Below, one piece after another: positions 1 through 30,286 of a stretch of 32,000 bases of DNA. The stretch spans positions 60,001 through 92,000 of the forward strand of contig NZ_CP042905.2 of the NCBI RefSeq assembly GCF_008000775.2, in the 5' to 3' direction. This stretch comes from Promethearchaeum syntrophicum (GTDB lineage: Archaea; Asgardarchaeota; Lokiarchaeia; Sigyniarchaeales; Promethearchaeaceae). The stretch's first letter is position 1; every line of letters starts with the position of its first letter. The translations under genes and the position numbers were made by a program. The notes beneath the pieces are model-generated. The model saw only the letters and a list, made by a program, of their open reading frames with translations, was not told where the DNA came from and did no database searches.

Positions 1-68
1 TCGATTTTTCTACGGAATAATGAATGGGCTTCTCGTCCACAGACTTCACACTCTTTTAGCACTGGCAT
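1..68 (-). CDS. 5' end of a CDS that runs off the window edge; N-terminal Zn-ribbon, possibly an MBF1-type bridging factor
   Basis: A reverse-strand ATG at 68-66 opens a frame reading MPVLKECEVCGREAHSLFRRKI to position 1. A CxxC right after the start is typical of archaeal MBF1-like Zn-ribbon N-termini. Only 22 codons are visible. Confidence 0.3.
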   Translation of the reverse strand, partial: MPVLKECEVCGREAHSLFRRKI

Positions 69-190
69 AGTAATTCCACTTATCAAGAATTAAAAAGAAT
101 AAAAAAGTATTCTTCTCATATTTAAATATATTTTTTCCCAAAAAAATTCTGTTATTTGTAAAAAAAAAAATCCCATTTTCATCTAAGGGA

Positions 191-397
191 TTATCCACCA
201 GCTATCCTAGGCAATATTAAAATTTCATCATCTTTTTCCACAAAATCAGAAGGTTCTACTTTCTTACCATTGATTAAGACGACAAAATATCTTGATTCAA
301 GATTTAATTTAGTTAGTACATCATATACTTTCTGTGGATTTTTGACTCGATAAGTGGTCATGGATGACACTTCTTCGATTTTTTCGATATTCTGCAA
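191..397 (-). CDS. Small ubiquitin-like beta-grasp protein of the ThiS/MoaD/SAMP type, ending in Gly-Gly
   Basis: 68-aa ORF ending ...ILILPRIAGG followed by stop. The size and the C-terminal GG are the ThiS/MoaD/SAMP hallmark. The listed start is TTG; an ATG at 361 (MTTYRVKN...) is an alternative. Confidence 0.65.
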   Translation of the reverse strand: MQNIEKIEEVSSMTTYRVKNPQKVYDVLTKLNLESRYFVVLINGKKVEPSDFVEKDDEILILPRIAGG

Positions 398-508
398 AAT
401 TATTCACCCTCCCTGTTTTTTGTTTTCGATAAAGTAATCTTAAAACAATGATAAAAAGGTTACTAATTTGTAAAATAAGGTGTTAATAAAAAAACAAAAT
501 TCTAATAA

Positions 509-1201
509 TTATTTCTTCTTTTTTCTTTTTTGTTTTACTTTCTTCCCTTTTTCTTTTTCATTTGGAACGTTATTGTTGATAAATCTTTGTGTAATATCTT
601 TTTCCAAACAATTTTGAGAATACTCACTTAAAATTTGATTCAATAAACCAATTCCATCAAAATCATAGGTTTTAGCTAAAGAAAGATCATTTTCAAATAG
701 CTTATCAATAATTGTCAAAGCTTCAACGGGAATATTTAAGTTAAAATCCATAGAAAAATAATCTTCCGTTTGTATTGAATCCAAAATCTTTGCTAATTGT
801 GGAGAAAATCCAGCAAAATTTGGGATAATCCCTTTCTTCATCCCTTTTAAAAGATCAGAATTGCTGGTATTTATTTCATCTAAGTAAATACTGAATAATT
901 CCGTAATTTCTGATAAAATTGCATGACTAGTTGTCGGATCGAATCCTGTCGATATTAATAATAAATCTACTTGCCCGATATGATCAAAATCGACCGTTTC
1001 AAAATCCAATAATGAATTTCCTAAACTTATTGATTTTAATTCATTCATTTTAGAACTTTGAAGAAAGGAGTTAGAAAAGGATTTTAGCGCGGAGAAAAAT
1101 GAGAGTAATAAACTTTCATCTATATTTTTATTGCTATAGTCTTTGGAATAAATAGGTATTCCATACTTATCTGCAATAAGTACTGCATCTATATCTCCCA
1201 T
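509..1201 (-). CDS. Hypothetical protein with an N-terminal longin/roadblock-like domain and a polybasic C-terminal tail
   Basis: The N-terminus reads IDAVLIADKYGIPIYSKDY...LLLSFFSALKSFSNSF...LKSISLGNSLLDFETVD...VDLLLIS. This follows the strand-strand-helix-strand-strand pattern of longin/roadblock (MglB, AP-sigma-like) folds. The tail is EKEKGKKVKQKRKKKK. Confidence 0.4.
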   Translation of the reverse strand: MGDIDAVLIADKYGIPIYSKDYSNKNIDESLLLSFFSALKSFSNSFLQSSKMNELKSISLGNSLLDFETVDFDHIGQVDLLLISTGFDPTTSHAILSEITELFSIYLDEINTSNSDLLKGMKKGIIPNFAGFSPQLAKILDSIQTEDYFSMDFNLNIPVEALTIIDKLFENDLSLAKTYDFDGIGLLNQILSEYSQNCLEKDITQRFINNNVPNEKEKGKKVKQKRKKKK

Positions 1202-4566: not shown

Positions 4567-5541
4567 TTGATAAAAATGCGGATATTATTGATAGGCCCGG
4601 GCAGTATTGGGGTACTTTTTGGAGGAAAATTGGCCCTCGCAGGTAATAGAATTTTAATATATGCTCGCCCTCACTTTTCAACGATTTTGAAAGAACATCC
4701 ATTAAAATTAACAGATATCATCAATAAAGAACATGTGGTCCCGAATTTTGAAAAGGCACCTCCAATTCCAGAATTAATCAAATTAAGCCCACAAGAATTT
4801 CCAAAAATATGCTTAATTACCACTAAATCTTATGATTTAGAGAGCGTTTGCAGAGAATATCAGCCTGTTCTTAACAAAATTCCAATTATTGGATTAATTC
4901 AAAATGGAATTGGAAATGAAGAAATTATTGAGAATAACTATCCGAATTCAATAATTTTCCGTATAATCACATCCCATGGAGCAATGAGAGAAAATATTAG
5001 TCATATTATTCACACTGGTATAGGAAATACTTCAATTTGCCAAATTAAACCTCCATATGAAAACATCTCTGCCGAGAATAAACAGATTATAAAAGAATTT
5101 ACTGATAATCTTCAATATGCAGGTTTTGAATTAAAATTAAATAAAAATCCTTTGGAAGCTATTTGGAGAAAAGCCTTAACGAATATTGGTATAAATGCTA
5201 TAGGTGCTTTGACTCAACTAACTAATGGAGAACTATTAAAATCCGAATCTTTATTAAATTTAATTCGAAAAACGATAAATGAAGCAATATTAATTGCAAA
5301 TAAATTACAAATTCCCCTTGATCCCTCGTTTGATTATGTTCAAAACACACTTGAAGTTCTAAAAAATACAGCAACCAATAAGAACAGCATGTTACAAGAT
5401 GTGCTAAGAAAGAAAAAAACCGAAATTGAATTTTTAAATGAAAAGATAGTGAATTATGGAAAAAAAATGCATATTCCGACTCCAATAAATAAAACTCTAT
5501 CACAACTAATTCATGGATTAGAAAATTCTTATATTTTATGA
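4567..5541 (+). CDS. panE: 2-dehydropantoate 2-reductase (ketopantoate reductase)
   Basis: Rossmann N-terminus ILLIGPGSIGVLFGGKLALAG and C-terminal NSMLQDVLRKKKTEIEFLNEKIV..G....IPTPIN, typical of ApbA/PanE. The likely true start is the ATG at 4576 (MRILLIGPG). Confidence 0.82.
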   Translation: MIKMRILLIGPGSIGVLFGGKLALAGNRILIYARPHFSTILKEHPLKLTDIINKEHVVPNFEKAPPIPELIKLSPQEFPKICLITTKSYDLESVCREYQPVLNKIPIIGLIQNGIGNEEIIENNYPNSIIFRIITSHGAMRENISHIIHTGIGNTSICQIKPPYENISAENKQIIKEFTDNLQYAGFELKLNKNPLEAIWRKALTNIGINAIGALTQLTNGELLKSESLLNLIRKTINEAILIANKLQIPLDPSFDYVQNTLEVLKNTATNKNSMLQDVLRKKKTEIEFLNEKIVNYGKKMHIPTPINKTLSQLIHGLENSYIL

Positions 5542-6107
5542 TAATCTTTCTCATAAACAACCCAACTAGCTCGACGCCGCCGCACTTGAAAATCATGGTC
5601 GAGTTGGGCAACCAGAACGTGTTCAGGATCTCCATGAATATAACTTACATCAACAACAGGTTCGGATGCAGTTAATACTAGATCTTTGGGAACTGGCATC
5701 ATAATAGGAGTGTTCCCACAAATTTGACATTCAATTAGAATATATTTTGTCTCGGTTGTTTCTTTTTTTGTGAGTTCTTCTAATTGATTGCTATTTAATT
5801 TTATTTTAATTGCTTTTTTCATAGGGGGAGGGGGAATTGAAAGGTCAATCTCACTCATATCAAGTTTTGGTTTTTTTAATTTTGTAGATCCTGATATTGT
5901 CTTTAGATTTTTTGGGGATTTTGGAACTTTTGGAGGTGGGGGAGTAGCCTTTTGTGGATTTTTTAATCCGTTTTCAAAAGTTTCAAGAAGATATTTCCAA
6001 GTTTCTCTCCAATGAACAGGGCTATCGCTTTTTTGATTCAAATCATCCTTGATATCTTTCATTTTAACCCAAATTTCTAAAGGTATTGATATAGTTTTAT
6101 TTGCCAT
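5529..6107 (-). CDS. Hypothetical protein: Pro/Lys-rich linker and a C-terminal Cys-containing domain
   Basis: 192-aa ORF. It has a low-complexity PPPPKVPKSPK middle and a C-terminus reading ILIECQICGN...YIHGDPEHVLVAQLDHDFQVRRRR. No family recognised. Its 3' end overlaps panE convergently by 13 nt. Confidence 0.5.
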   Translation of the reverse strand: MANKTISIPLEIWVKMKDIKDDLNQKSDSPVHWRETWKYLLETFENGLKNPQKATPPPPKVPKSPKNLKTISGSTKLKKPKLDMSEIDLSIPPPPMKKAIKIKLNSNQLEELTKKETTETKYILIECQICGNTPIMMPVPKDLVLTASEPVVDVSYIHGDPEHVLVAQLDHDFQVRRRRASWVVYEKDYHKI

Positions 6108-6235: not shown

Positions 6236-6754
6236 ATGCGACATCAAAAAAAAAGGTCTTTTCCAACCACATGTAAATTCTGCGGGGCATCAATATTATA
6301 TTGGGAAAGCACTGCAGGTCAGAAAGTTTTCTTTAATCTTCCAATTTATGGTAAACCTATATCTCATCGTTGTAAAAAAAGAAATAAGAAGAAATCAAAC
6401 GTTCTTGAGTCAAATAAAGATCATTTAGAAAAAAAAATTGAAAAGATCACCTTTCAATGCCCTGTTTGTAGTAAAATTTTAAACTCCGATACCGCTCTCA
6501 ATTCTCACATAAATAAATTAAGGAAACAAGATGATTATCATTCAGACTTTTTTGACTCTGCTATGGATTTATTAGTATGGAATGATTCTGAACAAAAAAA
6601 TCTCAACGATTTAGATATGAATCAGTATAAGACAAAACACTCATTTAGTGTTATGAGCGAGCGGTTTATACTAAAAACCAACAAGAATACAGAAGAAGAA
6701 GAGTATCAAAAATTTTTAAGGTTACAAAAATTAAAAAAAAATAAGGAAGAATAA
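6236..6754 (+). CDS. Zn-finger protein (CxxC...HxC treble-clef-like plus a C2H2-like finger) with a basic/acidic helical tail
   Basis: Contains CKFCG...HRC and FQCPVCSKILNSDTALNSHINKL (C-x2-C-x12-H). The stop lies 3 nt before the next gene's ATG. Confidence 0.6.
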   Translation: MRHQKKRSFPTTCKFCGASILYWESTAGQKVFFNLPIYGKPISHRCKKRNKKKSNVLESNKDHLEKKIEKITFQCPVCSKILNSDTALNSHINKLRKQDDYHSDFFDSAMDLLVWNDSEQKNLNDLDMNQYKTKHSFSVMSERFILKTNKNTEEEEYQKFLRLQKLKKNKEE

Positions 6755-6757
6755 TTT

Positions 6758-7384
6758 ATGCCAATAGAATTTGAAAAAATACTTGATGATTTGTTCGCAA
6801 AAGGCATCGTGATTGCGGCTGTTGTTTGCAGACGTAACGGAGAAATAGCCTATAGCTCATCGAACTGGAGTGTTGATCCAGGTGATCTTTCACAATGTAT
6901 TAAAAAGTGGCAATCTCGTGGGCAATTTACTCATTTACAAGATCGTAAATACGCATTACTTATGAATACACCAGAATACTTTAGTGGAATTAATTTCAAA
7001 GATAAAGATTTCTTGTTAGGAGCCGCTTCTCTGGATGAAAACGATCGTTATTACGTAATTGGGTATGCACCTCCAGGAGTTTCAGGAAGAAATGCATACG
7101 TCGATGTTGTACGGGCTGCAAATCAGATGAAAGAAGGGGTATATTTAGATGAAACTGCAAAATTGGGAAAATATGATGATACTCAAGTTGCAGCGGACGC
7201 AAGTGCTGCGGGTGGAATAGTGGATAACTCCTTAAAACAAGAAATTGATGGATTCTTAACTTGGATTCGAGATACAAATGGCTTATCCGGTTACATTCAA
7301 TATTATTTAGATCAAAATGATCCGGTTGTTTTAACAAAAATAGCCAAGGCATATAATGATTTTCGACGTATTTTTGGGTTTTAA
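6758..7384 (+). CDS. Profilin-like protein with a C-terminal extension of about 80 aa
   Basis: The first ~125 aa follow the profilin layout: N-terminal helix (IEFEKILDDLF), IAAVVCRRNGEIAYSSSNWSV, LQDRKYALLMNT, FLLGAAS, YYVIGYAPPGVSGRNAYVDVVRAANQMKEG. This resembles what I recall of Asgard profilins. Not verified by search. Confidence 0.55.
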   Translation: MPIEFEKILDDLFAKGIVIAAVVCRRNGEIAYSSSNWSVDPGDLSQCIKKWQSRGQFTHLQDRKYALLMNTPEYFSGINFKDKDFLLGAASLDENDRYYVIGYAPPGVSGRNAYVDVVRAANQMKEGVYLDETAKLGKYDDTQVAADASAAGGIVDNSLKQEIDGFLTWIRDTNGLSGYIQYYLDQNDPVVLTKIAKAYNDFRRIFGF

Positions 7385-7486
7385 GATCTTTTTTTTCACA
7401 TTTTGCACAATCTTTCTTTTTAATTTTAAAGATTTTTTAAAGTTCACAGATAATTAATTAATAGAAAAGGAGATTTTTGTGGGAAA

Positions 7487-8233
7487 ATGAAATTATTTAA
7501 AATTACTAAAGATGAAATTACTGAAACTAAAAATGTCAATCCTGAGGATATTGTTCTGGTATTAAATGAGGAAATGAAAAAACTTTACGTTTATAAAGGA
7601 GAAAAAAGCACTACTTATAATGAATTGAAATCGGATGCATTATTTGAAAGAATTACCAATCAATTTTTCAATCCAAAAATTTTCTTGATTAAATCCCTAG
7701 ATGTTACGAAACAAGATCATCTTGAAATTGTTCAAGCAAAGAATTTTATAATGAGCCATTTCCCTAATATTAAGAAATTTTGGGTAATGTATTACTTGAA
7801 AAATATATTCTTACTTCATCAAATCCGTAAAAATATAAAAGTTTTCAAAAGTTATGATAAATCTCGAATTTGGCGCTTAAGATTATCAAATACAACAAAT
7901 ATATGGTATTTGAGTATTATAAATACGATGACCTTATTAATTTTGGTTATTGGTTTACTTTGGAAGATAATTTCTTTGGGAAATACAAGTTTTATTAATT
8001 TAGATACTAATACAGTTGATCCTATAGGATGGGCATATTGGTTTGAGAATCTACAGTTGTTTTTTATTATCAGTGGGATCATTCTCATTATTTTACTGGT
8101 TGTAAATCTAATATTTGTTCTTTTTCCAATGAAATTTCCAATATCTCCTTCAAAAATTAAATTAATGACTTCAAATTTGAAAGAATCGGTTCCACATGAC
8201 GTAATTGATAATAAAGAATTGGAAAAGGATTAA
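7487..8233 (+). CDS. Gelsolin/cofilin-like N-terminal domain fused to a two-TM membrane anchor
   Basis: The N-terminal ~95 aa (KLFKITKDEITE...PEDIVLVLNEEMKKLYVYKGEKSTTYNELKSDALFERITNQF..PKIFLIKS) fit the gelsolin-repeat pattern. Hydrophobic helices IWYLSIINTMTLLILVIGLLWKII and LQLFFIISGIILIILLVVNLIFVLF follow. Confidence 0.4.
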   Translation: MKLFKITKDEITETKNVNPEDIVLVLNEEMKKLYVYKGEKSTTYNELKSDALFERITNQFFNPKIFLIKSLDVTKQDHLEIVQAKNFIMSHFPNIKKFWVMYYLKNIFLLHQIRKNIKVFKSYDKSRIWRLRLSNTTNIWYLSIINTMTLLILVIGLLWKIISLGNTSFINLDTNTVDPIGWAYWFENLQLFFIISGIILIILLVVNLIFVLFPMKFPISPSKIKLMTSNLKESVPHDVIDNKELEKD

Positions 8234-8352
8234 ATTTTTTTTTATTTTTAATTTTTTCTGAATTGGAAAACTTTTTTTTTTTCTGCGGACAAATTTTCTA
8301 CACAAATTGAATAATTGCGGAGATAATTTCTACAATAAATACGAATCAGTAA

Positions 8353-9363
8353 ATGCGGTCAAATTTTTTACAAAGTTTATATTGTCAAATGGTTCAAAAT
8401 CATTTATCAATGGAAGCTTCCAATAAAAAAAACTGTTTTTGTGAATCATTACATAATTGCCCAGAATGTAGATCTGAATCAATTTTTAAAGATTCCTTAA
8501 GAGGAGAATATATTTGTACAAATTGTGGATTAATTTTAGAATCAAATACAATTGATCACCGAGCAGAATGGAGAACATTTGATTCACGCGATTACGAAAA
8601 AAAATCACGTGTTGGAGCTCCTTTTACTTTGACAATACATGATAAAGGGCTTTCCACAATTATTGATTGGAGAGATAGAGATGGTTTAGGAAAAAAGTTA
8701 TCTCCTGTTAAGCGAGCTCAAGCTTATCGTTTACGGAAATGGCAAATTCGAATGCGAATTCACTCAGCTATAGATAGAAACTTATCTTTCGCTATGAGTG
8801 AGTTAGATAGATTAGCTTCACAATTAGGAATTCAAAAAACGCTGAAAGAAACATCTGCATTAATTTACAGAAAAACAATAAATAAAAATTTGATACGTGG
8901 GCGATCTATAGAAGCAATGATGGCTGCATCAATTTATGCTGCATGCAGATTAGCTCAAATTCCTAGGACTTTGGATGAATTTGCAAAAAATTCTCGAATT
9001 GAAAAAAAAGAATTAGGGAAATCATACAGATTAATTCTGCGCCAACTAAATTTAAAAATTACCTCGATAAATCCAAACCGTTTTGTCTCACGATTTGCTA
9101 ACGATCTAGAGATATCACAACAATCTCAACTTAAAGCTATTAAAATATTAAATGGTGCTCGAAGAATTGGGATAACTAGTGGTAAAGATCCATGTGGATT
9201 GGCTGCTGCATCAATTTATGTTGCAGTTTTAAGCAATGGAGAACGAAAAACACAAAAAGAAATTGCTCGAGTTGCTAATATAACTGAGGTTACGGTTAGA
9301 AATAGATATAAAGAATTAATAGGTAAATTGAATTTAAAAATTGAACCCTTAATTACTAATTAA
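8353..9363 (+). CDS. tfb: Transcription initiation factor IIB (TFB)
   Basis: Zn-ribbon CPECRSE...YICTNCGLIL, then IDHRAEWRTFD, then two cyclin-fold repeats (GRS.EAMMAASIYAACR and GKDPCGLAAASIYVA) and ITEVTVRNRYKEL. The true start is probably the ATG at 8410. Confidence 0.95.
   Translation: MRSNFLQSLYCQMVQNHLSMEASNKKNCFCESLHNCPECRSESIFKDSLRGEYICTNCGLILESNTIDHRAEWRTFDSRDYEKKSRVGAPFTLTIHDKGLSTIIDWRDRDGLGKKLSPVKRAQAYRLRKWQIRMRIHSAIDRNLSFAMSELDRLASQLGIQKTLKETSALIYRKTINKNLIRGRSIEAMMAASIYAACRLAQIPRTLDEFAKNSRIEKKELGKSYRLILRQLNLKITSINPNRFVSRFANDLEISQQSQLKAIKILNGARRIGITSGKDPCGLAAASIYVAVLSNGERKTQKEIARVANITEVTVRNRYKELIGKLNLKIEPLITN
8376..8383 (+). promoter_or_regulatory. Candidate TATA box for tfb, implying a leaderless mRNA that starts at the ATG at 8410
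   Basis: TTTATATT lies about 27 nt upstream of the in-frame ATG at 8410 (MEASNKK...). This is the usual archaeal TATA-to-start spacing. Confidence 0.35.
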
Positions 9364-14160: not shown

Positions 14161-14688
14161 TTGTCAACTAACTGGATATTCAAAACAATCGTTGCCGGTG
14201 CCGGCGGTGTAGGGAAGACTGCCTTAATTGAACGATATGTCTCAGGTGCTTTTCTAGAAGACCACAAGATGACGATAGGGGCAGCTTTTTCTGTTAAAGA
14301 TGTAAAATTAGATACTGGAGAAAATGTGCGCATGCAACTCTGGGACTTTGCAGGAGAAGAAAGATTTCGGTTTTTACTCGGAGATTATTGTAAAGGGGCT
14401 TCCGGTGCTTTTATTTGTTTCGATATAACGGATTATTCAACATTTGAACAAATACCTGAATGGTTAAGGATTATTCGTCAAAATGCGGGTATGATTCCTA
14501 TTATATTAGTAGGAAATAAATATGATTTGGATAACCATGAATTAGAATTAGCCACAGCAGATGAATACGCTGAAAGTGCCAAATGTTTGATGAATGTGTT
14601 TTGTTCTGCAAAGTTGGACTTAAATGTAGAACCTATGTTTGCTGCAATGGCAAAATGGTTAATATATTATGCAAATTTAGCGGATTAA
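14161..14688 (+). CDS. Rab/Ras-like small GTPase
   Basis: G1 GAGGVGKT, switch I TIG, G3 WDFAGEERF (compare WDTAGQERF), G4 GNKYD, G5 CSAK. TTG start. There is no C-terminal Cys lipidation motif (it ends YYANLAD). Confidence 0.85.
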   Translation: MSTNWIFKTIVAGAGGVGKTALIERYVSGAFLEDHKMTIGAAFSVKDVKLDTGENVRMQLWDFAGEERFRFLLGDYCKGASGAFICFDITDYSTFEQIPEWLRIIRQNAGMIPIILVGNKYDLDNHELELATADEYAESAKCLMNVFCSAKLDLNVEPMFAAMAKWLIYYANLAD

Positions 14689-20812: not shown

Positions 20813-21865
20813 TTAATCTTCTTTTAGAGGTCTTGGTTCTTGATATTCAATTAAAATGTCTTTTAAATATTTCCGTAATTTCGAAATAATCTCATTTATT
20901 TGATTTTCAGCTAAAATACTCTTATCTAACGAACTTATGATTGAAAAATAATAATTAGCATAATATGGATTGCCAGATTTTTTCTCTTCCATAACACTTT
21001 TCATTTGCTCTTCTGAGATTTTTAAATCATCGTAAAGATGAAATTGGTAGCACAAATTCATAAACTCCCCATCAACACCCCGTATGCTTGTAACATCTAA
21101 ATTTTCATCTTCTAATTGGCCAAAAAACTCCAAATGACCGCTGATTATTTTATCTATTTTGTTTTCAAGTTCATAATCTTTACTTTTTGGATTAAATGTC
21201 TCCGAAATCACGAGACCCGTATGATCGAATAAAATTGCTTGAGCGATTTCAGTTTTATCCCGATATTCAATAATTTCATCTTGAATTTCATCATATCCGA
21301 TTAAATAACGCCTTAATCCGTTAGAGATCATATGGATAATGGTATACAAATTATATATACTTGTTAAATAAAACTGAAAATTATATTCTGGAAAAGTTTT
21401 TCTCAATAAACTCTTAACCATTGCCCTTCGGGCAATATATTCATCAGGATTTTCTTTAATAAATTCATAATCGGTTTTACTAAAACAGATATAAATAGGA
21501 AGATCTTTAGCATAACTTACTTTTTTTAATACTCCCAGAACTTCTTCTAAATATGAAATACTCTCACTAAAACGCATTTCATCCTGTATATCAATTAAAT
21601 ATATCAATAAATCAATACTCTCAAAATACATCTTGCGCTGGATATACATCTTGCGAAATTTACTTTGACCCCCCATATCAAAGAAATTTAATCGAAGGTC
21701 TAAAAAATCTCTTCTATAATAATCGATGCGTAAAGTTGGCTTTAAATTATGAATCTCGTCTTCATATCCATACATTCGTTTAAAGCTGACAAGCATGCTG
21801 GTTTTTCCAGCATTATCTAAACCACTTAATACTACTTTAATTGGTTTTTTCGTTTTATTGCTCAT
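20813..21865 (-). CDS. Arf/Sar-type small GTPase domain fused to a C-terminal roadblock/longin-like domain of about 165 aa
   Basis: G1 SGLDNAGKTS (Arf-family GLDxAGKT), G3 DMGGQ, and a degenerate G4 SKTD. The C-terminal half reads IAQAILFDHTGLVISETF...ISGHLEFFGQL...VTSIRGVDGEFMNLCYQF, which is roadblock-like. Confidence 0.65.
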   Translation of the reverse strand: MSNKTKKPIKVVLSGLDNAGKTSMLVSFKRMYGYEDEIHNLKPTLRIDYYRRDFLDLRLNFFDMGGQSKFRKMYIQRKMYFESIDLLIYLIDIQDEMRFSESISYLEEVLGVLKKVSYAKDLPIYICFSKTDYEFIKENPDEYIARRAMVKSLLRKTFPEYNFQFYLTSIYNLYTIIHMISNGLRRYLIGYDEIQDEIIEYRDKTEIAQAILFDHTGLVISETFNPKSKDYELENKIDKIISGHLEFFGQLEDENLDVTSIRGVDGEFMNLCYQFHLYDDLKISEEQMKSVMEEKKSGNPYYANYYFSIISSLDKSILAENQINEIISKLRKYLKDILIEYQEPRPLKED

Positions 21866-22966: not shown

Positions 22967-22987
22967 ACTCGTTCCTGATTAAGGTCC

Positions 22988-26085
<3,098 letters not shown>

Positions 26086-26178
26086 AATAGTCCGAGTGTT
26101 TGGGCTGGAAAAGGAACATGTGGGTCCTGGCTTTGAATCGGAATCATTGCAGAGCAGTCGAACGAGAGATCGTGCGAT

Positions 26179-28165: not shown

Positions 28166-30286
28166 TTATTTCATAATTTTGAGCCCATTTTTAAGCGAGA
28201 TGGAGAGCCTTTTATTGATTTTAGCGAGAATGGGATCGTTGGGGGGCAATTTTAGTTCGAGAATTTCTCTTTCACGGTGTCCTGCTTCCCATCCTAATCT
28301 TTCTTCTTCATCGCTGGTTAGGGATTTGAGATTGTCAGAATATTGCTGCGCGAGTTGGGAGGGGGATTTCCTATAATAGTTATAGAGTTCTTCTGGATTT
28401 CCATGTTGGTAATGTTCGATTAGATTTTTCCCTTTTGGGGTTAGATTGTCGATATTTAAAGCTTCTTCTTTAATTCCTTCCCAAACGGTGTAATCAAAGA
28501 TATTTTTTGGGATATTAGAGAGTGAGCGAAGGGGCAGACCCCAAATGGATAGGATTTGGAGTTTTTGTAATGATGCGATAAAATCAGGGATAATTTCGAA
28601 TTGATTTCCCCCTCCGATATCAATTTCCGTGAGATTCTTTAAGTTTTTCATGGATTCGGGCATGAATTGAAAATTATTGCCATAACACACGAGTCCTTCA
28701 ATGTTTGTTAGGCTTCCGAGCCACTTTGGGAGGATGGAGAGATTTGTATTTGTGAAAAGGAGACTTGTGAGATTTTTAAGATATTTGATGCTTGGGGGGA
28801 GTCGGTTGATCTTACATTCTTCTATATGAAGGGTTTCGAGCTTGGAAAATTTTTGAAATTTAATTTTTTTGATTTCGGATTCATTAAGTCGTGATAGATA
28901 GATTTCTTTAAGTTGTGTGAGTTTATTGATGGATGGCGGAATTTTCGTAGGAATAGGATTTATAATTGATATGGATGTCAAAGATGTGAGTGTGTCGATG
29001 TTTTCTGGGATAGGGAGCTTTGTTAAATTTAGTTGTGTGATTTGACCATGAGAGATTTTAATACTATTTGTGGTGCCTGCTTGTAATGAGAAGGATTTGT
29101 CATATTTTTCTTCAAGTTTTCTAATAAAATCTGCTTGATTTTTTAAGATAGGTTTATTTTTATATTTGGAGTATTGTTTTTGAATTTCTCTCTCTTTTTG
29201 AATTCTTCTTTCGATTGTATTAATAAATTTAATGATAAGATTTGGGGAAGCGCTTTTATGATATTGGTGGAAGTTTTTTTTAACATTGAAAGTACTAAAT
29301 TCAGCTAAATTTTGTAATTTTGAACGAAATAACTGGAGTTCTGATGTGCTGGCTTCCCACAATAATCGATTCCGATCTTCACCGGTTAGTGAGTTAAAAT
29401 CGTTAAGGAATTGTTTTGCGAGTTTTTGAGGGGATTTTTGGTAATATTGGAGTAATCCTTTAATGTCGCCGCTATTGAATAGTTTAGAACCTGTAGGAGA
29501 TAGAAAGAGATCTGAAGAGTCATTTTTATAGCTTTTTATGAATTCAGCGATAAATTTTTGAGGAATATTGGAGAGTGATCGGAGAGGGTTGTCGAAAAAA
29601 GATAGTTTTATTAAATTGGGGAATATAGAGATGAAATCTGGTATGGATTCAAACCTATTTTTAAAAATAACTAATTTCGAAAGATCAGTTAGATTTTTGA
29701 GAGTTTTCGGTAATGTGGAAATGGAACATTCAGAAATAGTAAGTTCATTAAGTGATAAAAGTTTTCCGAGTCTTTTTGGAATTGTTTTAATAGGGTTACC
29801 ATTAAGTGAGAGTTTTTTCAGATTTGGAATCTTTTCAATGTTCATCGGTAATTCGGAGAGACCACAATATGTGATATAAAGAATTTGAAGTTTCGAGAAG
29901 TGTTGGAATGGGAGATCGATTGATTTAAGTTTTATAGAATCAATATGAATCCTGATAAGGTTTGTGAGTTTGCTAAACGATGGCGGTAATTCGGAGATAT
30001 TTTGATTTTCAATGGTTAAATACTCAAGATTGGTCAAATTTCCGATGTTTTCGGGTAACTTATCGATTCTGTTAAAATTATTTTTTAAGTGTCCTCTAAT
30101 ACCTAGTGCAACAATGTTATAATCAACAACTCTATAACTCGCAGGTTTTCCTATGAGATGTTCAAGTTCGATAAGGACTTCTACATTGCTTTTAACCAAT
30201 GCTTGCCCGTTGTAGTTCATGAGTTCTTCGGATTGGTTTCGATGAATTTTAAGGACAGCGTTCTTTTCTTTGTTCTCCATTCTCAT
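28166..30286 (-). CDS. Leucine-rich-repeat protein with an internally duplicated architecture: two copies of an LRR block followed by a ~90-aa helical module
   Basis: 706 aa. Units of 22-24 aa of the form LxxLxxLxLxxNxLxxLPxxIxxL occur in two blocks. Each block is followed by PLRSLSNIP...YY(Q/R)KSP(Q/S)xLAxQ(F/Y)...SLT(G/S)(E/D)(D/E)xxRLxWEA. Confidence 0.85.
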   Translation of the reverse strand: MRMENKEKNAVLKIHRNQSEELMNYNGQALVKSNVEVLIELEHLIGKPASYRVVDYNIVALGIRGHLKNNFNRIDKLPENIGNLTNLEYLTIENQNISELPPSFSKLTNLIRIHIDSIKLKSIDLPFQHFSKLQILYITYCGLSELPMNIEKIPNLKKLSLNGNPIKTIPKRLGKLLSLNELTISECSISTLPKTLKNLTDLSKLVIFKNRFESIPDFISIFPNLIKLSFFDNPLRSLSNIPQKFIAEFIKSYKNDSSDLFLSPTGSKLFNSGDIKGLLQYYQKSPQKLAKQFLNDFNSLTGEDRNRLLWEASTSELQLFRSKLQNLAEFSTFNVKKNFHQYHKSASPNLIIKFINTIERRIQKEREIQKQYSKYKNKPILKNQADFIRKLEEKYDKSFSLQAGTTNSIKISHGQITQLNLTKLPIPENIDTLTSLTSISIINPIPTKIPPSINKLTQLKEIYLSRLNESEIKKIKFQKFSKLETLHIEECKINRLPPSIKYLKNLTSLLFTNTNLSILPKWLGSLTNIEGLVCYGNNFQFMPESMKNLKNLTEIDIGGGNQFEIIPDFIASLQKLQILSIWGLPLRSLSNIPKNIFDYTVWEGIKEEALNIDNLTPKGKNLIEHYQHGNPEELYNYYRKSPSQLAQQYSDNLKSLTSDEEERLGWEAGHREREILELKLPPNDPILAKINKRLSISLKNGLKIMK

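Follow-up and report, generated by a model that had tools for sequence, protein, structure and literature searches.

We analysed a 32,000-nucleotide stretch of the genome of the Asgard archaeon Promethearchaeum syntrophicum MK-D1 (contig NZ_CP042905.2, positions 60,001 to 92,000; hereafter the window, numbered from its first letter), which carries a conserved cluster of four genes. By sequence and predicted structure, one of them encodes a true profilin homologue with an additional C-terminal domain (gene 2, DSAG12_00584). The others encode a predicted membrane protein with a probable gelsolin/cofilin-type head domain (gene 3, DSAG12_00585), a protein with two likely zinc sites (gene 1, DSAG12_00583) and a divergently oriented protein ending in a further putative zinc domain, here called the X protein (DSAG12_00582). 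We consider it possible, at slightly below an even chance, that the four components make up a membrane-anchored complex which binds or regulates actin. An earlier reading of this DNA, made from the letters alone (the sequence-only reading), had proposed a module of three same-strand genes lying back to back. The three open reading frames (ORFs) 6236-6754 (172 aa), 6758-7384 (208 aa) and 7487-8233 (248 aa) indeed follow one another on the plus strand and match QEE14767-14769 (DSAG12_00583-00585) among the public gene calls exactly, but the module has four parts and not three, as the divergent gene 5529-6107(-) also belongs to it. An exact look-up identified the X protein together with genes 1-3 as QEE14766-14769 (DSAG12_00582-00585), and the gene 3 product is 100% identical to DSAG12_00585. 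All four products are named 'hypothetical protein' at NCBI and 'uncharacterized protein' in UniRef. The published gene table likewise lists them as hypothetical, without a flag for eukaryotic signature proteins, and gives DSAG12_01906 alone as a 'profilin-like' gene of MK-D1 (Imachi et al. 2020, S-Table 3).

The profilin-like character ascribed to gene 2 by the sequence-only reading was borne out by both sequence and model searches. A phmmer search of the PDB with DSAG12_00584 found the Odin profilin 5zza_P (E 2.3e-7) and the Thor profilin 7pbh (E 2.9e-5). The Pfam Profilin profile (PF00235) aligned over positions 4-123 of its 127 with an E-value of 0.003, scoring 18 bits against a cutoff of 25, and five orthologues bear a precomputed PF00235 match. 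An AlphaFold2 (AF2) model based on 33 homologues reached a predicted local distance difference test score (pLDDT) of 76-90 over the profilin domain (aa 1-120), and its elements follow the order found in profilin, with a helix at residues 5-14, seven strands and a helix at residues 110-122. When this model was compared with the PDB by Foldseek, 5zza_P was again the best match (E 2.7e-10, target template-modelling score 0.83, 2.0 Å for the r.m.s.d.), and the next ranks were occupied by Loki profilin-1 and -2, and then by Acanthamoeba, plant, yeast and human profilins. The Asgard profilins of known structure (Odin 5ZZA, Loki profilin-1 and -2, 5YEE and 5ZZB; Akil & Robinson 2018) have the same fold and topology as the model of DSAG12_00584, share an invariant NW motif with it, and, in the case of Odin profilin, are 27% identical to it over 118 aligned residues.

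Unlike the Asgard profilins, DSAG12_00584 is fixed in a gene cluster and continues into a disordered linker of about 30 residues and a 52-residue three-helix domain. The linker varies in both length and sequence across our alignment A2. The C-terminal domain ranks among the best-conserved parts of the family, with the consensus LKQEIDGFLxWIxDxxGLSGYIQYYLDQND...YNDFRxIFGF and nine invariant columns in alignment A7, and AF2 predicts its helices at residues 157-171, 176-186 and 189-206. Every profilin located in the cluster has this domain, whereas the paralogues P0073 and P0074, encoded elsewhere, lack it; profilin paralogues without it sit in unrelated gene contexts (L004). No credible relative of the C-terminal domain was found in Pfam or the PDB. 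The Asgard profilin literature that we searched describes extensions at the N terminus only (PMC8410842), and we found no mention of the locus tags, of 'profilin-3' or of a C-terminal extension of profilin in the searchable literature. A profilin carrying this domain therefore appears, as judged from its sequence, to be a new architecture of which no description was found there.

The head domain of gene 3 is more divergent, and its assignment relies on profiles. Single-sequence searches with DSAG12_00585 gave no match, and a Pfam search with 16 close full-length homologues returned only a weak match to DUF2207_C, which we rejected as an artefact of the transmembrane (TM) segments. The AF2 model of DSAG12_00585, calculated from 16 mostly close sequences, was poor, with a mean pLDDT of 54. 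Foldseek against the PDB with this model gave a best E-value of 0.64 and no gelsolin, although the model is too poor for this result to count as a negative. We searched a profile of residues 1-95 against 1.84 billion representative proteins and obtained 33 matches, 31 of them genuine; P0121 and P0124, which are fn3 and MBG repeat proteins, were rejected from the family as false positives caused by repeat summation. The narrow first profile (A3) had signal peptidase subunit 3 (SPCS3) as its top match in the PDB (E 0.008). We rejected this match as chance, as it was gone with the more diverse profile A4 comprising 29 family sequences, while the gelsolin signal grew stronger. With A4, the top PDB match was Thor ProGel (7c2f_B, E 7e-4), the closest PDB relative of the head family, and it was followed by adseverin, gelsolin, Loki 2DGel and Thor 2DGel3. 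The gelsolin superfamily accounted for 21 of the 28 PDB matches, in a single register over a strand, a second strand and the long helix. A single member, P0122, whose N-terminal domain is near-identical to that of P0126, a full-length fused member inside the conserved cluster, matched villin (E 1.1e-3), gelsolin (6.5e-3) and adseverin on its own, with E-values ranging to 3e-2 and 22 of 26 PDB matches in the gelsolin superfamily. Among Pfam families, Gelsolin (PF00626) was the commonest sub-threshold one, being matched by 5 of the 29 members with a best E-value of 0.018.

In the DWG motif, which separates gelsolin from cofilin, the Asp hydrogen-bonds the Trp and the Gly is obligatory (bioRxiv 10.1101/768580). 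In the corresponding columns of the 29 members, Asp is found in 18, the aromatic position is Tyr in 20, Trp in 6 and Phe in 3, and Gly is found in 24. The best-conserved stretch of the head, LYERIxNRFLNPNI, aligns to the long-helix region of ProGel. In gelsolin domains, the long helix contacts actin by inserting between subdomains 1 and 3. One further protein, P0125 (253 aa, on a JGI contig of 1726 bp), had ProGel as its top PDB match (E 0.13). The head of P0125 resembles gelsolin more closely (LYIWEG), and the hydrophobic C-terminal region that follows it is of another kind and seems to be multi-pass, which suggests that the head domain has come to be membrane-anchored in more than one way. 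We conclude that the head of DSAG12_00585 is probably homologous to a gelsolin/cofilin-type domain. The single N-terminal gelsolin repeat seen by the sequence-only reading thus stands on concordant profile matches, each of them weak by itself; the Pfam Gelsolin scores remain below threshold, and the AF2 model was too poor to confirm the fold.

The two C-terminal transmembrane helices proposed earlier for gene 3 are supported by hydropathy and charge distribution. The hydrophobic segments at residues ~139-162 and 187-212 exceed a 19-residue Kyte-Doolittle mean of 1.6, with peaks of 2.2 and 3.2, and AF2 places long helices at residues 127-165 and 179-212. There is no N-terminal signal-like segment in DSAG12_00585. 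The loop between the two segments contains no Lys or Arg, three Lys residues follow TM2, and the juxtamembrane segment ahead of TM1 is strongly basic (Table 1). From this charge distribution and the positive-inside rule, we predict an N-in/C-in hairpin with both termini in the cytoplasm. The juxtamembrane segment is conserved as FKNYExSxxWRxxLSNxTN, with R114, S126, W129, S134 and N135 nearly invariant. Past the hairpin, invariance is complete or nearly so at F213, P214, F217, P218 and P221, and this motif has the family form FP(M/L)(K/R)FPI.

The fourth component emerged from the distant members of the gene 3 family. Gene 3 is longer in the majority of relatives, and most distant homologues are 377-445 aa long and consist of the head, the TM hairpin, the FP(M/L)(K/R)FPI motif, a linker and a domain X of about 70 residues. 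The last 70 residues of DSAG12_00582 align with the C-termini of these fused homologues. According to tblastn, X is fused to the C-terminus of the gene 3 homologue at loci L003, L005, L006, L012, L013, L014, L017 and L019, and it is encoded by a separate divergent gene in the window, in other Promethearchaeum spp. (L008, L009), in HM1_B6_4 (L010) and in Candidatus Harpocratesius repetitus (L001/L011). On this comparison of sequences, 5529-6107(-) is the detached C-terminal tail of gene 3, the fused state probably being ancestral, and the pattern of fusion and fission ties the X protein functionally to gene 3. Stand-alone X copies of 76-86 aa also occur beside or inside the cluster in addition to the fused copy, at L005 4722-4955, L013 4651-4911 and L014 4217-4447(-). 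Domain X has C15, C18, H46, H51, D58, R64 and R67 as invariant residues in alignment A6, and no credible relative of it was found in Pfam or the PDB. We rejected homology between domain X and the zinc protein DSAG12_00583, for which the CxxC knuckle alone aligns (Prob 18%). The linker ahead of domain X, ~105-170 residues with ~10% Pro and 15-20% Lys, is poorly conserved except for one linear motif, EIDLSIPPPPMKK in DSAG12_00582. In general terms, an acidic stretch precedes L-x-(I/V)-P-x-x-P-(M/L)-(K/R)-K, and the motif lies 41-49 residues ahead of the CxxC in 13 of the 14 X-bearing sequences.

Gene 1 had been described as a two-finger zinc protein. Because the ligands of both sites are invariant across 13 homologues, DSAG12_00583 likely has two zinc sites, the second of which would be a non-canonical finger. 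Site 2 is C2H2-like with an unusually long His-His spacing (H-x10-H), which places it outside the classical C2H2 definition (C-x2-4-C-x12-H-x3-5-H with a Pfam-level match), and the Pfam C2H2-type matches to residues 73-94 are sub-threshold (zf-C2H2_4, E 2e-4, 22.3 bits against a cutoff of 27). Two invariant zinc sites can thus be retained from the earlier description, but not two canonical C2H2 fingers. The basic tail and a faint similarity to RNA-binding fingers leave room for a nucleic-acid role, which DSAG12_00583 may have.

We compared the gene order among 12 lineages, using gene contexts and tblastn, over a range of gene 3 identity from 27 to 90%; genome and metagenome scans with one narrow peptide pattern served to find further loci (5 and 6, respectively). 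The gene for the profilin with the C-terminal domain is directly upstream of the gene for the gelsolin-like TM protein (Gel-TM) in 10 of the 12 lineages, with a small X-domain gene between them in two. The zinc-protein gene is part of the cluster in 8 of the 11 lineages in which it could be assessed. This core pair is kept in L005 and L013, where tRNA synthetase, ASD and NTPase genes form the upstream flank instead, and in L006 and L019/L020, where the gene for transcription factor B (TFB) is inverted and lies on the opposite side. In L012, internal reshuffling inverted the zinc-protein gene, yet all four parts are still together. The gene order, whose conservation in relatives had been suggested as a check, is therefore kept down to 27% identity of gene 3 despite local rearrangements. 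So far, the cluster is found on Lokiarchaeia-type (Promethearchaeia) contigs. The features of the cluster and its surroundings are listed in Table 1.

Table 1. Features of the four-gene cluster and its immediate surroundings, in window coordinates.
Feature	Position	Strand	Basis or remark
DSAG12_00582, X protein, 192 aa; Lys/Pro-rich low-complexity N-terminal part and putative zinc domain X	5529..6107	-	tblastn
Domain X, aa ~120-192; C-x2-C-x27-H-x4-H, then LDxDFxVRRRR	5532..5750	-	alignment A6
Linear motif EIDLSIPPPPMKK in DSAG12_00582	5814..5852	-	conserved linker motif
DSAG12_00583, likely two-site zinc protein with basic C-terminal tail	6236..6754	+	ORF; family alignment A9
Likely zinc site 1, C13-x2-C16 ... 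H44-x-C46	6272..6373	+	four ligands invariant, 13 homologues
Likely zinc site 2, C75-x2-C78-x12-H91-x10-H102	6458..6541	+	four ligands invariant, 13 homologues
Profilin domain of DSAG12_00584, aa 1-125	6758..7132	+	phmmer, AF2 and Foldseek
Low-complexity Ala/Gly/Asp linker of DSAG12_00584, aa 126-156	7133..7225	+	pLDDT <50 at aa 130-155
Predicted three-helix C-terminal domain of DSAG12_00584, aa 157-208, and stop	7226..7384	+	alignment A7
T8 run, possible archaeal oligo-T terminator	7389-7396	+	read off sequence; 5 nt past gene 2 stop
Probable gelsolin/cofilin-like N-terminal domain of DSAG12_00585, aa 1-95, predicted cytoplasmic	7487..7771	+	profile A4, hhalign
Basic juxtamembrane helical segment, aa 96-137	7772..7897	+	11 K/R against 1 D/E over 42 residues
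Predicted transmembrane hairpin: TM1 ~139-162, uncharged loop 163-186, TM2 ~187-212	7901..8122	+	hydropathy, charge
Post-TM motif FPMKFPISP and short tail	8123..8233	+	site where longer homologues run on into linker/X
TFB, DSAG12_00586	8353..9363	+	NCBIfam TFIIB, E 1e-133; neighbour, not claimed as part of the module

According to the published transcriptome, the values in reads per kilobase per million (RPKM) are 280 for DSAG12_00582, 209 for DSAG12_00583, 342 for DSAG12_00584 and 167 for DSAG12_00585 (Imachi et al. 2020, S-Table 3), indicating that all four genes are transcribed in the MK-D1 culture. The zinc protein ends 3 nt before the ATG of gene 2, as the sequence-only reading had it (spacing 6755-6757), and a purine-rich stretch lies ahead of this ATG. 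From this short spacing, genes 1 and 2 are likely co-transcribed. Genes 2 and 3 are separated by 102 nt (7385-7486), in which the T8 run is followed by an A/T-rich stretch and then GGAG ahead of the gene 3 ATG. Another T-rich stretch, also a possible archaeal oligo-T terminator, lies past the gene 3 stop (~8237-8260). If they are terminators, these runs would mean separate transcription of gene 3. Given the T8 run just past the gene 2 stop, co-transcription of gene 3 with genes 1 and 2 is doubtful, and a separate promoter may drive gene 3. The common control suggested earlier for profilin and gelsolin is accordingly not established, and tight coupling is seen for genes 1 and 2 only.

TFB adjoins the cluster in most lineages, even where it is inverted, and in the window the genes beyond it on the minus strand encode RpoP, a 152-aa ORF and SUI1. 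A second TFB of MK-D1 (DSAG12_01671) adjoins the two-domain gelsolin DSAG12_01672 (Imachi S-Table 3). The adjacency of TFB and gelsolin may have arisen by chance, stem from an old segmental duplication or reflect a regulatory linkage.

Several Asgard actin regulators invite comparison with the cluster proteins: Asgard profilins, ProGel, 1DGelX and 2DGel all regulate actin in vitro (PMC7444086, PMC9433394, PMC8410842). The domain plan of 1DGelX/GelX is described as 'GH domain, extensive linker, X domain' (PMC7444086; bioRxiv 10.1101/2025.11.30.690169), and the fused members of the gene 3 family match it with the head, two TM helices, a ~130-aa linker and X. Unlike 1DGelX/GelX, gene 3 of MK-D1 itself lacks the linker and X, both of which are encoded by 5529-6107(-). 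Whereas the head of 1DGelX is 35-47% identical to ProGel (PMC7444086, bioRxiv 10.1101/768580), the gene 3 family is far less similar to ProGel, at 11% in the hhalign alignment, which argues against a simple orthology with 1DGelX/GelX, proteins that are known here by description only. The gene 3 family has a predicted two-helix anchor, whereas the 1DGelX/GelX papers, the preprint in its accessible part, report none, and the word 'transmembrane' is absent from the main text of PMC7444086. In addition, X of the gene 3 family is a putative C2H2 zinc domain, whereas domain X of Thor 1DGelX is predicted to be a coiled coil. GFP-1DGelX in human cells was concentrated at the endoplasmic reticulum and nuclear-envelope-like regions (PMC7444086), a localisation that is suggestive, by analogy, when set beside a membrane-anchored gene 3 product.

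By analogy only, the cluster also resembles formin FH1, Ena/VASP and WASP family proteins, in which a module binding actin ends and a flexible Pro-rich segment of the same polypeptide are positioned at the membrane and served by a dedicated profilin. The (M/L)KK at the end of the motif in the X tail recalls the LKKT/V consensus of WH2. Unlike the FH1/VASP/WASP proteins, however, the gene 3/X family has no homology to FH2, EVH1 or WH2, contains one short IPxxP motif instead of poly-Pro tracts, and would be anchored by TM helices instead of lipid or GTPase binding. Eukaryotic gelsolin and villin proteins, such as PIP2-regulated gelsolin and supervillin, are, as far as is known, peripheral proteins of 3 to 6 domains regulated by Ca2+ and PIP2. 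They would share with gene 3 a gelsolin-type domain at the interface of actin and membrane, whereas gene 3 appears to join a single divergent domain to an integral membrane hairpin.

The profilin B35_Pro2 (GNAMCCOK_02587, 14.5 kDa) and the gelsolin B35_2DGel2 (GNAMCCOK_02589, 29.9 kDa) of Lokiarchaeum ossiferum (bioRxiv 10.1101/2025.11.30.690169, Table S3) have a single gene between them, as read from the identifier table only. Both were enriched in a Lokiactin co-immunoprecipitation, and the intervening gene 02588 was barely detected in the proteome; the accessible part of the same preprint does not mention the proximity of the two genes. We rejected B35_Pro2 as an orthologue of gene 2, as it is a plain profilin of 14.5 kDa. 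Proximity of profilin and gelsolin genes may be a recurrent theme. The sequence-only reading had held that the two had not been described as neighbours or with a membrane-anchored gelsolin. We found nothing in the searchable literature on this cluster, on a TM-anchored gelsolin-like protein or on the MK-D1 locus tags, but the proximity as such is not unique, as the L. ossiferum pair indicates.

If the cluster encodes a membrane-anchored, actin-related complex, the helical hairpin of DSAG12_00585 would lodge in the cytoplasmic membrane and leave the gelsolin-like head on the cytoplasmic face. The head might bind Lokiactin, either as a monomer or at the barbed end or side of a filament, through its long helix LYERIxNRFLNPNI, and would thereby hold actin at the membrane. 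The tail, whether fused or detached, could provide a flexible arm that recruits partners by a single docking motif and the zinc domain X. DSAG12_00584 would bind actin monomers and might dock to the tail motif, domain X or DSAG12_00583 via its C-terminal domain or a poly-proline site. The net effect would be a concentration of profilin-actin beside a membrane-fixed actin-binding head, following a logic like that of FH1/VASP. Capping, severing and actin binding by the cluster proteins are here purely inferred. A bolder version, in which the cluster is the first archaeal membrane-actin coupling machine, with a gelsolin-like head and actin-loaded profilin recruited by the tail for membrane-directed polymerisation, seems to us quite improbable at present. 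If true, the eukaryotic FH1/VASP/WASP logic would have a functional analogue here, perhaps even its forerunner, and the cluster would be a candidate for driving the Lokiarchaeial protrusions.

A number of observations weigh against an actin-related complex, and they lend themselves to other explanations. The head of gene 3 may not be gelsolin-like at all, but a chance match to a short beta-beta-alpha pattern (hydrophobic strand, xYxWxG, helix). The E-values are individually weak (7e-4 to 0.1), every Pfam Gelsolin score is below the gathering threshold, that of the DSAG12_00585 head being 12.8 bits against a cutoff of 21 (E 0.11, aa 15-63), and the first profile did pick up fn3 and MBG repeat proteins. 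The poor model, for which no structural neighbour was found, has a helix at residues 8-16, where the gelsolin fold has a strand. We nevertheless regard a chance match as rather improbable, because the queries A4, P0122 and P0125 all have the gelsolin family as their top match in the same register, the links of ProGel itself to other gelsolins are equally weak (E 2e-3 to 0.1), and the false positives are accounted for by repeat summation. A direct hhalign comparison of A4 with five gelsolin core fragments gave a Prob of 93% (P 3e-7), a score inflated by the choice of some fragments from A4's own matches, against 0.4% for a profilin family control. It is also conceivable, though somewhat unlikely, that the folds are correct and the proteins work away from actin, in a membrane complex for signalling, trafficking or a process linked to small GTPases, with the domains acting as generic protein-binding modules. 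The profilin model also matches Roadblock/LC7/MglB-type folds, but only at E-values of 5e-4 to 1e-2, far below the profilins in rank, and DSAG12_00584 matches actin-binding Asgard profilins in sequence. The head has diverged from canonical gelsolins, with Tyr for Trp in most members and N27, Y36 and G38 in DSAG12_00585 where gelsolins show D-W-G, whereas its best-conserved stretch coincides with the helix known to contact actin. Thor ProGel itself binds rabbit actin weakly, with a Kd of ~337 uM (PMC7444086). According to PMC8410842, the Loki and Odin profilins examined so far do not bind polyproline, which weakens the idea of an FH1-like docking.

The gene neighbourhood can be read in more than one way as well. 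The Gel-TM-X genes of L014 and L017 have no adjacent profilin gene, L014 having only X-domain genes nearby. At L017, the upstream place of profilin is taken by a divergently oriented 333-aa protein (29-1030(-)), whose N-terminus resembles Arf/Rag GTPases (GLDNAGKS ... DMGGQ ... SKAD) and whose C-terminus is extended at length, a pairing that would suit a role away from actin. An Arf GTPase was enriched in the L. ossiferum Lokiactin co-immunoprecipitation (bioRxiv 10.1101/2025.11.30.690169). On the other hand, the recurrence of a profilin next to a gelsolin-like protein in 10 of the 12 lineages is difficult to account for unless the two share a ligand. Another alternative is that the cluster merely reflects synteny inherited within one archaeal class beside housekeeping genes (TFB, RpoP, SUI1), with the zinc protein binding nucleic acids in a non-cytoskeletal role. 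The window, L001, L003 and L012 also have the same gene order over the wider neighbourhood (PanB, DUF72, ApbA ... TFB, RpoP, SUI1, HD), so part of the cluster conservation is plain shared ancestry. The weak likeness of the zinc protein to dsRNA-binding and C2H2 fingers, its basic tail, its absence from the cluster in L006, L014 and L017, and the T8 run between genes 2 and 3, which speaks against one shared transcript, all agree with this view. We still consider inherited synteny an unlikely explanation, since the core pair outlasted the change of its flank, the inversion of TFB and the reshuffling in L012, genes 1 and 2 are only 3 nt apart, and the profilins without the C-terminal domain are found elsewhere. 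Moreover, X is either fused to gene 3 or encoded in its neighbourhood, which shows directly that these two parts are linked. On balance, a membrane-anchored complex acting on actin remains our preferred, if tentative, reading of the cluster.

Elsewhere in the window, we noted a Ras-family small GTPase at 14161-14688(+) (E 5e-41), a 350-aa Gtr1/RagA- and Arf-like GTPase at 20813-21865(-) (E 2.5e-20), and a 230-aa protein at 509-1201(-) with a weak sub-threshold match to the first longin domain of FUZ/MON1/HPS1 (E 1.4e-4). The GC-rich block at 23-26 kb is explained by a complete archaeal 23S rRNA gene at 22982-26107(+), inside which the 165-aa ORF 25561-26058(-) is presumably spurious. The window contains no tRNA gene or other Rfam family at threshold, and no 16S or 5S rRNA gene beside the 23S. 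A 706-aa leucine-rich-repeat protein is encoded at 28166-30286(-) within a region of strong positive GC skew (0.32-0.40).

To our knowledge, no protein is known to link Lokiactin to the membrane. Cultured Asgard archaea form dynamic, actin-filled protrusions (PMC9834061; bioRxiv 10.1101/2025.11.30.690169), and the Lokiactin co-immunoprecipitation probably under-represents membrane proteins according to its authors (bioRxiv 10.1101/2025.11.30.690169). The cluster offers expressed candidates for an actin-membrane link in the type strain MK-D1, namely a probable gelsolin-like protein with a TM anchor, a dedicated profilin paralogue that bears a new domain and two putative zinc-binding partners. 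Even if these proteins do not bind actin, the C-terminal domain of the profilin, the zinc domain X and the linker motif would be new conserved elements on two eukaryotic-signature folds. If they do bind actin, membrane-directed actin regulation would be older than eukaryotes.

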